From Escherichia phage NRG-P0074, in sequence record PQ480333.1: 64,000 bases of DNA; one strand, 5' to 3'. Below, piece after piece: positions 41,154 through 44,853 of the stretch (positions are counted from its first letter, which is position 1; each line of letters opens with the position of its first letter). Position numbers and translations under genes: made by a program. Below the pieces are notes generated by a model that was not told the DNA's origin, did no database searches, and saw nothing but the letters and a program-made list of their open reading frames with translations.

Positions 41154-41516
41154 ATGAAAGCATATCAAATTCTTGAAGGTGCACATAAAGGCACTATTTA
41201 TTTTGAAGACGGTACTCAAGCCCGGATTATTGTCTCTAAGACTTTTAAAGAAGACACTATTGTAGACCCGGAAATTTTCTACGGTTTGCATGCCCGTGAA
41301 ATTGAAATTGAACATCAACCTAAAGTTAAAATTGAAGGTGGTCAACATCTGAACGTTAACGTTCTGCGTCGCGAAACTCTGGAAGATGCAGTTAAACATC
41401 CGGAAAAATATCCGCAGCTGACCATCCGTGTATCTGGTTATGCAGTTCGCTTTAACTCTCTGACTCCGGAACAGCAGCGCGACGTTATCGCTCGTACCTT
41501 TACTGAGAGTCTATAA
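41154..41516 (+). CDS. Autonomous glycyl radical cofactor (GrcA/YfiD-like; T4 Y06I-like)
   Basis: C-terminus ...[60 protein letters not shown] carries the glycyl-radical motif RVSGYAV and matches the remembered E. coli GrcA C-terminus. Confidence 0.8.
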
Positions 41517-41740
41517 TGGCTAAATTGATTATAGAAGGGTCTGAAGATGTTTTAAAATGTTTTGCCGCCTGGTTTAGTTGCTCAGGCGAGCAATCATTCA
41601 TTGAAGCATTTAGAATGGGTGATATTACTGGAAACTATCCGACAACTGATATCACTGTACATGGATATGGTATTAATGAGCCTATCCAATTGGTCGAATA
41701 TGACCTTGCCACTGATGAGGAAATTCCTTATGTCGATTGA
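41516..41740 (+). CDS. Hypothetical protein (74 aa)
   Basis: ORF with overlapping start. Confidence 0.4.
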   Translation: MAKLIIEGSEDVLKCFAAWFSCSGEQSFIEAFRMGDITGNYPTTDITVHGYGINEPIQLVEYDLATDEEIPYVD

Positions 41741-42272: not shown

Positions 42273-42731
42273 ATGACTATCAATTCGGAAGTTTTTATCC
42301 GCCGTAATAAACTCCGTCGAATCTTTGAAACGGAGTTCCGCAAAATAAATGCCAGTATAAAAGACGCTGCAAAGTCTCTTGGACTACCAGGCTTTCATAT
42401 CAAGTATTCTCAACATCTCTTAGATCGTGCTATCCAGAGAGAAATAGATGAGAATTACGTTTTTGAATTATTTCGTAAAGTAAAAAATCATGTTAAAGAA
42501 GTTGCAGAATTTTTATCAATGCCGGCACGTCCAGATGTTGATGAAGATTTTGTCGAAGGTGTCGAATATCGCCCAGGACGTTTAGAAATAACTGATGGAA
42601 ATCTTTGGTTAGGACTTACAGTTTGTCGCGAAAATCCAGCATTCAAAATGAAGACTCTTCAATGCAGAATGGCTATTATTAACAGTAAACGACTACCAGG
42701 AAAAGCTTCTAAAGCAGTGATTAAAATCTAG
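42273..42731 (+). CDS. regB: RegB site-specific endoribonuclease
   Basis: MTINSEVFIRRNKLRRIFETEFRKIN...GRLEITDGNLWLG... matches remembered T4 RegB. Confidence 0.85.
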   Translation: MTINSEVFIRRNKLRRIFETEFRKINASIKDAAKSLGLPGFHIKYSQHLLDRAIQREIDENYVFELFRKVKNHVKEVAEFLSMPARPDVDEDFVEGVEYRPGRLEITDGNLWLGLTVCRENPAFKMKTLQCRMAIINSKRLPGKASKAVIKI

Positions 42732-42739
42732 AGGTAAAC

Positions 42740-43282
42740 ATGAGAAAAGCACTACTCGCTGGTCTATTTGCTCTTTCATTATCAGCACATAGCTCCGAGC
42801 ATACTTTTAGTAATGTCCAACTCGATAACTTGAATTATGCTTATCAGTTTGGGGAACAGTTTTCTAAGGACGGAAAATTTAAAACGCATGAAAATATGCA
42901 TAAGAAAGGACTTGGATACATAATGGCCGCAATACTATGGCAGGAATCATCTGCCGGTATTAATCTTAAAGATAAGAAAGGTCACCATGCGTATGGAATG
43001 TTCCAAAATTATCTACCAACAATGAGGGCAAGAATTAACCAGCTTGGTTATAATATGACTGATGCCCAAATTAAGAAAATGCTATCTAAGCGGTCTAATT
43101 CAACCAGATGGGCTTATATCGAATTTTCTTATTGGTTAAATATACATAACGGGGATATAAGAAAAGCTATATCCTCATATAATGCGGGATGGAAGACAAG
43201 TGCTGGAAGTAAATATGCTTCTGAAGTCCTAGAAAAGGCTAATTACCTTAAATCAAATAAACTACTGGAAATAAAAGAATGA
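42740..43282 (+). CDS. Secreted/periplasmic protein (180 aa; possibly T4 vs.1-like)
   Basis: N-terminal signal peptide MRKALLAGLFALSLSAHS; position after regB. Confidence 0.5.
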   Translation: MRKALLAGLFALSLSAHSSEHTFSNVQLDNLNYAYQFGEQFSKDGKFKTHENMHKKGLGYIMAAILWQESSAGINLKDKKGHHAYGMFQNYLPTMRARINQLGYNMTDAQIKKMLSKRSNSTRWAYIEFSYWLNIHNGDIRKAISSYNAGWKTSAGSKYASEVLEKANYLKSNKLLEIKE

Positions 43283-43626
43283 CCAAAATGTTGGCTTTAA
43301 TAGTTGGCTTGGTTTCATTTAACGCTCTTGCTAATACAACATATACTGATGTAACGGAGTATACAAACAGAACGGCGTCTGATTATTGTGGTAAAAGTCA
43401 AGAGTGTAAAGTAGATTTTTCACAAAAATTGTTATATGCGTATAAAGACGGAGAAAAAGATGGGGCGTCTAGTAGGTTCAAGGCGTCTACCTTAATTAAA
43501 AGATACTATAAAAAATGGCAAATATTAGAATGCTCTGTGGCGGAACCTAAAGATAAGGCAGCATGCAATTCTATGGTGGACCGTCTAGTTGACTCTTATA
43601 CTAGAGGACTTGCAGCAAGTGATTAA
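43279..43626 (+). CDS. Secreted protein (115 aa; possibly T4 vs-like)
   Basis: Signal peptide MTKMLALIVGLVSFNALA; 115 aa equals T4 Vs length; identity not verified. Confidence 0.4.
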   Translation: MTKMLALIVGLVSFNALANTTYTDVTEYTNRTASDYCGKSQECKVDFSQKLLYAYKDGEKDGASSRFKASTLIKRYYKKWQILECSVAEPKDKAACNSMVDRLVDSYTRGLAASD

Positions 43627-44083
43627 AAACTATATCAAGGGCGATATTGTCGCCCTGTTTTCTAAAGGTAATAATATTGCTCATGGGTGTAATTGTTTTC
43701 ATACAATGGGCGCTGGTGTGGCAGGACAATTAGCAAAGGCTTATCCAAAAATTCTGGAAGCCGATAAACTTCAAACCGAATTCGGAGACAAGTCTAAACT
43801 CGGGACTTATTCGGTTTATGAAAAATATTTTAAGACCCATAAAGCTTATTGCTTTAATCTTTATACACAGTTTGAGCCGGGACCTAATTTTGAGTACTCT
43901 GCTTTAATGAATTGTATAATAGAATTAAATGAATTCGGAAAGAATAAGATAATAAAGCCTGTAATTTATATGCCTAGAATTGGTGCAGGTATTGGTGGTG
44001 GAAACTGGGATATCATCGAAGAGATTTTAGATACGTATTCCACTAAACTAGAAATTGTGATTGTTGATTGGGAACCTAAATGA
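43589..44083 (+). CDS. Macro-domain protein, TARG1/DarG-like (ADP-ribose-removing hydrolase family)
   Basis: KGDIVALF...IAHGCNCFHTMGAGVAGQLAKAYP and PRIGAGIGGGNWDIIEEIL resemble remembered TARG1 motifs (KGDLFAC...LAHCISEDCRMGAGIA, PRIGCGLDRLQW); start codon uncertain (TTG 43589 or GTG 43619). Confidence 0.65.
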   Translation: MTLILEDLQQVIKNYIKGDIVALFSKGNNIAHGCNCFHTMGAGVAGQLAKAYPKILEADKLQTEFGDKSKLGTYSVYEKYFKTHKAYCFNLYTQFEPGPNFEYSALMNCIIELNEFGKNKIIKPVIYMPRIGAGIGGGNWDIIEEILDTYSTKLEIVIVDWEPK

Positions 44084-44262
44084 AATTAACTAAAGAAGAG
44101 AAAGCTAAATTGTTCGAACTTATCCATGACCTATTGGATGAGCAAGCAGCCACCAATGCGTATGATGAATATGCTCCTTTGACGGATGAAGAATATCACG
44201 CATTGATGGAATCATTTGACAGGAAAGAACAAGAACTCATTGACTACGTGAATTCACTATAA
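44080..44262 (+). CDS. Hypothetical acidic protein (60 aa)
   Basis: ORF with ATGA overlap. Confidence 0.4.
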   Translation: MKLTKEEKAKLFELIHDLLDEQAATNAYDEYAPLTDEEYHALMESFDRKEQELIDYVNSL

Positions 44263-44271
44263 GGGACTCTT

Positions 44272-44853
44272 ATGGCTAGTTTAATTTTTACCTATGCCGC
44301 TATGAACGCTGGTAAGTCTGCTTCATTACTTACTGCCGCACATAACTATAAAGAACGTGGCATGGGTGTATTAGTTCTTAAACCGGCTATTGATACTCGC
44401 GATTCAAAAGGTGAAATAGTCTCTCGTATTGGTATTCGTCAGGACGCCAATATAATTACAAAAGACATGGATATCTTTGAATTCTATAAATGGGCTGCAG
44501 CACAAAAGGATATTCACTGCGTATTTGTTGACGAAGCTCAGTTCTTAACTACTGAAAAGGTGTATCAACTTAGTCGTATTGTTGACGTATACAATGTGCC
44601 GGTAATGGCATATGGACTACGAACAGATTTTAAAGGTAATCTATTTGAAGGTTCTCAAGCATTAATGGCTATTGCCGATAAGCTTGTTGAACTTAAAGGT
44701 GTCTGTCATTGTGGTAAAAAGGCCACAATGGTAGCTAGAGTCACGGAAGACGGACTTCCAATTACAGATGGCAGTCAAATTGAAATTGGTGATACCGATA
44801 GATATGTGTCATTATGCCGGAAGCATTGGAACGATTTGACAGGGTTGTTATAA
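44272..44853 (+). CDS. tk: Thymidine kinase
   Basis: 193 aa, P-loop MNAGKSASLL, Zn-finger CHCGKKA...CRKH; matches T4 Tk. Confidence 0.9.
   Translation: MASLIFTYAAMNAGKSASLLTAAHNYKERGMGVLVLKPAIDTRDSKGEIVSRIGIRQDANIITKDMDIFEFYKWAAAQKDIHCVFVDEAQFLTTEKVYQLSRIVDVYNVPVMAYGLRTDFKGNLFEGSQALMAIADKLVELKGVCHCGKKATMVARVTEDGLPITDGSQIEIGDTDRYVSLCRKHWNDLTGLL

Follow-up and report, generated by a model that had tools for sequence, protein, structure and literature searches.

The window analysed here is a stretch of 64,000 nt from Escherichia phage NRG-P0074 (sequence record PQ480333.1), and it belongs to an RB69-like T-even phage (genus Mosigvirus). Over the 2.4 kb that surround the gene described below, identity to the Escherichia phages BEU50 and moha is 99.2-99.3%, and at least 80% of this 2.4-kb region is covered in 154 phage records. 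The gene itself, a CDS of 154 aa for a macrodomain protein (43619..44083, plus strand; GTG start, TGA stop), is preceded by vs, the ortholog of the valyl-tRNA synthetase modifier gene (43279..43626, plus strand; 115 aa, 67% identity to T4 Vs), and followed by the ortholog of tk.2 (44080..44262, plus strand; 60 aa, 48% identity to T4 Tk.2) and by tk for thymidine kinase (44272..44853, plus strand; 81% identity to T4 Tk). The stop of vs overlaps the macrodomain start, and the ATG of tk.2 overlaps the macrodomain stop in the form of ATGA. The site between a vs-like gene and tk, as given in the initial annotation of this DNA, agrees with this gene order, and the two peptide strings quoted there for the open reading frame ending at 44083, IKGDIVALFSKGNNIAHGCNCFHTMGAGVAGQLAKAYP and PRIGAGIGGGNWDIIEEIL, are both present exactly.

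When T4 proteins were searched by tblastn in the window sequence, the genes denV, vs.8, vs.7, vs.6, vs.5, vs.4, vs.3, regB, vs.1, vs, tk.4, tk.2, tk, rI.1 and rI were found to be colinear with T4, and on account of this gene order the macrodomain gene is the Mosigvirus ortholog of T4 tk.4 (adfM). T4 Tk.4 as the query was placed at 43619-44077 of the window, and in the gap-free alignment 131 of 153 residues (86%) are identical. In the same search with T4 proteins, no counterpart of T4 tk.1 and tk.3 was detected in the window. The vs gene lies immediately 5' of tk.4 in 8 strabovirus genomes besides the window (records of T4, Mosigvirus, Kanagawavirus, Dhakavirus, Krischvirus and a Klebsiella strabovirus), the two CDSs overlapping in all but the Krischvirus phage MIZ4. 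By tblastn, homologs of the macrodomain protein were found in 2,790 phage records, and the reading frame matches phrog_335, labelled 'phosphatase', with E=3e-66; together with the Pfam match given below, this puts the gene far outside chance expectation. As to the upstream genes, signal-peptide-like N-termini were noticed on both Vs and Vs.1.

The translation start was identified as GTG at 43619, giving an overlap of 8 nt with vs (GTGATTAA), of which the stop codon occupies 43624-43626. The non-ATG start proposed in the initial annotation thus stands, but its position at TTG 43589, with an overlap of about 38 nt, does not. For comparison of the start, we used T4 together with phages JLBYU22 (Tequatrovirus), Kosakonia phage 305 (Kanagawavirus), MX01 (Dhakavirus), HMGUkp2 (Klebsiella phage) and MIZ4, all of which carry ATG at the position aligned to GTG 43619, and in the five with overlapping vs (all but MIZ4) an in-frame TAG or TAA stands immediately 5' of this ATG. 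The 10 extra N-terminal residues (LTLILEDLQQ) found no match, the tblastn and PHROG alignments starting at residue 11. The N-terminal extension from TTG (43589..43618, plus strand) was therefore rejected as being the 3' end of vs only, since homolog stops precede the aligned ATG and homology begins from residue 11. In an alignment of 121 sequences, consisting of the window protein and 120 database homologs, to which all residue counts below refer, 98 of the 121 members start at the same residue as GTG 43619 and 116 start within one residue of it; the same GTG is also the annotated start in the GenBank record of phage moha. A Shine-Dalgarno-like element, GAGG (43604..43607, plus strand), is located within the vs end, 11 nt upstream of the GTG, and its column is invariant in the 7-phage alignment, at a distance of 11-12 nt upstream of the start. 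Another candidate start, TTG 43610, was discarded because GAGG would be just 2 nt upstream. The T4-like 4-nt overlap, ATGA, is converted to GTGATTAA in the window because of a 1-nt indel near the vs end relative to T4.

The terminator scan picked up a strong hairpin of terminator-like form, GGGCGAUAUUGUCGCCC with a U-tract behind it (43639..43663, plus strand), 12 nt past the vs stop and within codons 7-15 of the macrodomain gene. After 7-phage alignment and folding, the hairpin was found to fold in the window, T4, JLBYU22, MX01 and MIZ4 and to be absent from Kosakonia phage 305 and HMGUkp2; MIZ4 has A for G at one stem position, so that U-A stands in place of a U·G pair. In the annotation of phage NBG1, this hairpin is marked as a 'terminator' and the CDS is shortened to 126 aa. 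Located within the first 15 codons, the hairpin might regulate macrodomain expression relative to vs. The promoter scan around the gene, which covered sigma-70 promoters as distinct from T4 middle or late ones, gave 13 sites against 15 expected, indicating no enrichment of sigma-70 sites.

The initial annotation had described the product as a macrodomain protein like TARG1 and DarG, and this description was upheld by sequence comparison, profile-profile alignment and predicted structure. The protein matches Pfam Macro (PF01661) with E=1.4e-6 and 28.7 bits, above the gathering cut-off of 22, over profile positions 2-117 of 118. The AlphaFold2 model, made from 59 homologs (pLDDT 95.7, pTM 0.91), has the predicted three-layer alpha/beta/alpha macro fold, and among solved structures it lies closest to BT1257, Poa1p, DarG and TARG1. 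Sequence matches in PDB were, in this order, BT1257 (1.6e-10), Poa1p (2.6e-8), SCO6735 (4.6e-5), TARG1 (1.3e-3) and DarG (1.6e-3 to 5.7e-3), and by hhalign the probability was 98.7% for the DarG group (E 2.6e-16), 98.2% for TARG1 and 98.8% for SCO6735/BT1257, the last at 32% identity. The PADLOC model of DarG was matched with E 1.8e-9 and 35 bits at positions 4-145 of 329, corresponding to the macrodomain part. The closest neighbours in both structure and sequence are thus of the ALC1-like/TARG1-like class rather than the MacroD, viral or PARG classes, and on the basis of the profiles and the structural model we are confident in assigning the predicted macrodomain to the ALC1-like/TARG1-like class.

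The active site was then compared using the sequences of DarG, BT1257 and SCO6735 from PDB alignments, that of TARG1 identical to 2LGR, and that of PhiKZ gp104 from the methods of PMC13309987. By profile-profile alignment and MAFFT, the window segment N80-L-Y-T-Q84-F is placed opposite N-F-P-T-K80-K of DarG, Y-L-I-T-K84-K of TARG1 and N-M-I-G-Q85-H of SCO6735/BT1257, and the Gln at the position of TARG1 K84 and DarG K80, i.e., Q84, is invariant (121/121). The same holds for N80, Y82 and G33 (each 121/121), and nearly so for H22 (118), N25 (119) and both G122 and G124 (119). The predicted set of ADP-ribose-binding residues is present, including D9 (D or N in 120/121), N25, G31-A-G33 and G122-A-G124-I-G-G-G128, and Q84, H22 and N25 are aligned with Q85, H24 and N27 of SCO6735. 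Opposite TARG1 D125 stands G126 by both hhalign and MAFFT. The mobile loop of the window and T4 proteins shows a 6-column gap opposite BT1257 and lacks 5 residues opposite SCO6735, its length in both being equal to that in TARG1, DarG and PhiKZ gp104, all of which share the gap in the MAFFT alignment. Of the catalytic motifs claimed for the protein in the initial annotation, the conserved ADP-ribose-binding loops are confirmed, but TARG1 K84/D125 and DarG K80 are absent; a TARG1-type mechanism with Lys and Asp was hence rejected, the two residues being replaced by Q84 and G126. Judged from the alignments, the phage protein is a Gln-type, short-loop variant.

This replacement bears also on the possibility that the protein is an eraser of protein (or RNA) ADP-ribosylation, set either by ADP-ribosyltransferases of host defence or by the phage enzymes Alt, ModA and ModB. 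We regard this possibility, which the initial annotation had also raised, as quite unlikely. ADP-ribosyltransferases are indeed encoded by T-even phages, but Alt and Mod enzymes modify arginine, and none of the macrodomains characterised so far is known to cleave the arginine linkage. The removal of Glu/Asp-linked ADP-ribose from proteins is known for TARG1 and SCO6735 (PMC9411070), but the Lys84/Asp125 dyad used by TARG1 for protein substrates is missing here, and of the hosts used in the T4 screens of bioRxiv 10.1101/2025.11.20.689424, the one with DarTG2 was the only one on which tk.4 came up. The suggestion in the initial annotation that the protein tunes the phage's own ADP-ribosylation found no support.

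The gene is already annotated, and a function is already assigned to its T4 ortholog. In RefSeq, T4 tk.4 is described as 'phosphatase; contains A1pp phosphatase motif', the A1pp label having been in use since the early 2000s; the A1pp domain in tk.4 orthologs was noted by Nolan et al. 2006 (PMC1524935), and many Mosigvirus copies carry the GenBank labels 'macro domain protein' or 'Poa1p-like'. T4 without adfA and adfN (the latter being T4 30.3) remains resistant to DarTG2 (PMC11825919), which implies a further anti-DarT factor. In HIDEN-SEQ, a transposon screen, no T4 gene other than tk.4 was significant with a DarTG2-expressing host, and after clean knockout of tk.4 T4 became DarTG2-sensitive, the gene being renamed adfM for anti-DarT factor Macrodomain (bioRxiv 10.1101/2025.11.20.689424, 20 Nov 2025). 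The removal of ADP-ribose from DNA by T4 AdfM is the inference of those authors, worded as 'it seems likely' (bioRxiv 10.1101/2025.11.20.689424). Our full-text search for tk.4 combined with ADP-ribose returned the HIDEN-SEQ preprint alone. The idea in the initial annotation that a phage copy could reverse DarT-imposed ADP-ribosylation is thus supported by genetics of the T4 ortholog, both in the screen and by the knockout on DarTG2, and it is not new.

A different role to be weighed, in keeping with the old 'A1pp phosphatase' label, is that of a housekeeping, metabolite-clearing macrodomain that acts on ADP-ribose-1''-phosphate or O-acetyl-ADP-ribose in the manner of Poa1p, or on ADPr-derived immune signals, with protection from DarTG2 as a side activity. 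Poa1p is structurally as close to the window protein as DarG is, and this counts against a role directed mainly at DarTG2. Among the Poa1p residues H23, S30 and F152 (mutated in 6LFS, 6LFT and 6LFU), only the first corresponds to a conserved residue, H22; the position of S30 is variable (T29 in the window, T in 75/121), and that of F152 is occupied by Gly (G126) or Ala. In addition, the T4 ortholog has a single reported phenotype, a conditional essentiality specific to DarTG2. We therefore consider the metabolite-clearing role unlikely as the main one, while noting that metabolite-clearing and DarTG2-protective activities are not mutually exclusive. Among the readings compared in this study, the DarTG2 role alone has experimental support, obtained with the T4 ortholog.

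Taken together, the protein is probably a stand-alone ('orphan antitoxin-like') macrodomain ADP-ribosyl-glycohydrolase that neutralises DarTG2, as the ortholog of Tk.4/AdfM. In the proposed mechanism, the gene would be transcribed within the string regB-vs.1-vs-tk.4-tk.2-tk, and translation from the GTG would be coupled to the end of vs. The macrodomain would then bind the ADP-ribose that is placed by host DarT2 on thymidine of phage ssDNA, and hydrolysis of the ribose-base bond would restore replicable DNA, thereby neutralising the abortive infection by DarTG2. Cleavage of T-ADPr DNA is known for SCO6735, DarG, TARG1 and PhiKZ AdfM, and by analogy with these we infer that the window protein and T4 Tk.4 would be active on the same substrate with Gln84 as a key residue, and that the DarTG2 phenotype of T4 would transfer to the Mosigvirus copy. 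The most likely mode is SCO6735-like catalysis, in which Gln84, His22, Asn25 and the two glycine-rich phosphate loops would position the substrate and a water molecule, with no use of a Lys nucleophile of the TARG1/DarG style. Since both the Lys of DarG/TARG1 and the long loop of SCO6735 are absent, the mechanism of SCO6735 may not transfer exactly.

Protection could alternatively be mainly non-catalytic, through binding and inhibition of DarT2 or through shielding of ADP-ribosylated DNA. The strict conservation of the ADP-ribose-binding and putative catalytic residues argues for an enzymatic function, and the C-terminal DarT-binding domain of DarG is absent from this protein of 154 aa, of which the matches end at position 145 of 329 in the PADLOC model and at position 148 of 338 in the NCBIfam model described below. 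It is true that the catalytically dead mutants SCO6735 Q85A, DarG K80A and TARG1 K84A inhibit DarT in vitro, SCO6735 most strongly (PMC9411070), and since in the case of SCO6735 Q85A the inhibition of DarT persists through binding, protection may be non-catalytic in part; as the main mode of protection, we consider this very unlikely. Beyond thymidine-linked ADP-ribose on DNA, the substrate range of T-even AdfM might be broader and extend, for example, to the products of further DarT variants, to ADP-ribose on RNA or protein, or to ADPr-derived signals.

The result re-discovers a gene that was already annotated and recently characterised, and it adds one more layer to the known means by which T-even phages counter DarTG (AdfA, AdfN and AdfM), the macrodomain layer being present also in the RB69 group. 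The gene adfA, which we take to be T4 gene 61.2, and adfN presumably lie, from their T4 map positions, outside the T4-equivalent span of the window (about 40-104 kb). For phage therapy and prediction of host range, an intact tk.4/adfM ortholog would be a usable marker of DarTG2 resistance. Of mechanistic interest is a Gln-type macrodomain that would attack the thymine-ribose bond with neither the Lys nucleophile nor the long loop of SCO6735.

In comparison with T4 Tk.4/AdfM, the window protein has the same length within one residue, the same neighbours (vs upstream and tk.2/tk downstream), the Shine-Dalgarno element and the hairpin in common, together with H22, N25, Q84 and both glycine loops. 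The differences from T4 are the start codon (GTG in the window, ATG in T4), the overlap with vs (8 nt in the window, 4 nt in T4), the missing tk.1 and tk.3, and two residues, A32 and G127, which are S32 and K127 in T4. With SCO6735 and BT1257, the phage protein shares the Gln position and the H-x-C-N motif, but these two are cellular, not phage-encoded, and their mobile loop is 5-6 residues longer, a loop about 5 residues longer than that of DarG/TARG1 being characteristic of the SCO6735/BT1257 subclass (PMC9411070). SCO6735 carries neither of the TARG1 catalytic residues, and its activity, for which a water-mediated catalysis is proposed, is abolished by Q85A and Q85E (Hloušek-Kasun et al., PMC9411070); on ssDNA, it clears ADP-ribose linked to thymidine at a higher rate than DarG or TARG1 does, and it relieves the toxicity of DarT (PMC9411070). 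Residues K34 and K89, with which SCO6735 binds DNA, lack a conserved counterpart in the phage protein, the former being A32 and the latter falling in the shortened loop.

Human TARG1 (C6orf130/OARD1) was the top Foldseek match (E 3e-10; 23% identity) and has the KGD, the H of 'AH' and the PRIG-G loops in common with the phage protein, differing in the dyad as described above. The highest TM-score (0.81) was obtained with yeast Poa1p (6LFQ), a eukaryotic small-molecule phosphatase, which shares the HxCNC motif but has Ser at the position of Gln84 and Phe152 at that of Gly126. DarG of T. aquaticus (5M31/5M3E) and M. tuberculosis (5M3I), with an identity of about 21%, has K80 where the phage protein has Q84, and unlike DarG the phage protein is encoded without an adjacent darT, its neighbours being vs and tk.2/tk. 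The score against the NCBIfam DarG equivalog NF048014 was 32.1 bits (model positions 4-148 of 338), well below its cut-off of 250; with this score, and with no Lys80 and no C-terminal domain, assignment as DarG proper was rejected.

PhiKZ gp104, which was independently given the name 'AdfM', removes DarT2-installed ADP-ribose in vitro (Morgan et al., Cell Rep 2026, PMC13309987). Like the window protein, it is a phage-encoded orphan macrodomain against DarTG2 with the conserved Asn (N23 in gp104, N25 here), but it is DarG-type, carrying FPTK with Lys, matching M. tuberculosis DarG with E 9e-25 and scoring 133 bits with the PADLOC DarG model against 35 for the window protein; in addition, gp104 enters the phage nucleus by import. 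By BLASTP, the window protein and gp104 were aligned over 23 residues only (E 6e-4), and orthology between the two was rejected on this ground. That T-even Tk.4/AdfM represents a third type among the macrodomains that remove ADP-ribose from DNA, distinct from the DarG type and not fully of the SCO6735 type, with Gln and a short loop, and recruited independently of PhiKZ AdfM, is a tentative proposal that we put forward with considerable doubt. Judging from their sequences, the two 'AdfM' proteins seem to have been recruited independently, from different subtypes of ALC1-like macrodomain, and the name AdfM now covers two unrelated macrodomain lineages.

The macrodomain gene overlaps vs, the gene directly upstream, by 8 nt GTGATTAA, because the stop codon of vs has moved 4 nt downstream of its position in T4. 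This shift, together with the altered C-terminus of Vs (RGLAASD* in the window, RGLSTR* in T4), results from a 1-nt indel relative to T4 within 43610-43626, close to the vs 3′ end. The start codon of the macrodomain gene is GTG in the window and ATG in six other genera. A terminator-like hairpin, predicted to form 8 base pairs of which 5 are G-C, was found on the plus strand at 43639-43663, GGGCGAUAUUGUCGCCC then UGUUUUCU, located 12 nt 3′ of the vs stop and within macrodomain codons 7-15. Among the phages compared, the hairpin is kept in T4, JLBYU22, MX01 and MIZ4 (in the last with U-A replacing a U·G pair), and is absent from Kosakonia phage 305 and Klebsiella phage HMGUkp2. The annotation of phage NBG1 describes this hairpin as 'terminator', and the macrodomain coding sequence is truncated there to match. 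The hairpin could attenuate read-through from vs, or could modulate the translation that begins at the weak GTG codon.

Downstream, a single small ORF (44080-44262, 60 aa), the tk.2 ortholog with 48% identity to T4 Tk.2, separates the macrodomain gene from tk, and tblastn gave no match to T4 tk.1 or tk.3 within 38-48 kb of the window. Two additional small ORFs are present between the macrodomain gene and tk in some close Mosigvirus relatives (NBG1, SA79RD), and for this reason their megablast alignments fall into two pieces.

Both vs (plus strand, 43279-43626) and vs.1 (42740-43282) encode proteins with hydrophobic, signal-peptide-like N-termini, MTKMLALIVGLVSFNALA... and MRKALLAGLFALSLSAHS..., respectively, as do their T4 orthologs, and four Cys residues are aligned between the window and T4 Vs. 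Such an N-terminus is unexpected for a protein called 'valyl-tRNA synthetase modifier'. In minimal medium, vs is conditionally essential according to the HIDEN-SEQ preprint (bioRxiv 10.1101/2025.11.20.689424). Further upstream, T4 Vs.5 (58 aa) matched the window in two segments in different reading frames, at 41516-41569 and 41556-41684, in the region of an uninterrupted 74-aa ORF (41516-41740); this difference may represent a lineage-specific frameshift or recoding of vs.5.

The GenBank record of phage moha (610-3583) gives 'endoribonuclease' to four genes, the orthologs of vs.8, vs.7, regB and vs.1, of which RegB is only the ortholog of window 42273-42731; the label appears to have spread from the RegB name in pVOG notes. 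The name AdfM has been given independently in the literature to two different macrodomain lineages, T4 Tk.4 and PhiKZ gp104, and by BLASTP gp104 aligned with the window Tk.4 ortholog over 23 residues and no more. T4 Tk.4 is a Gln-type macrodomain nearest BT1257/SCO6735/Poa1p, whereas PhiKZ gp104 is a Lys-type macrodomain near DarG.
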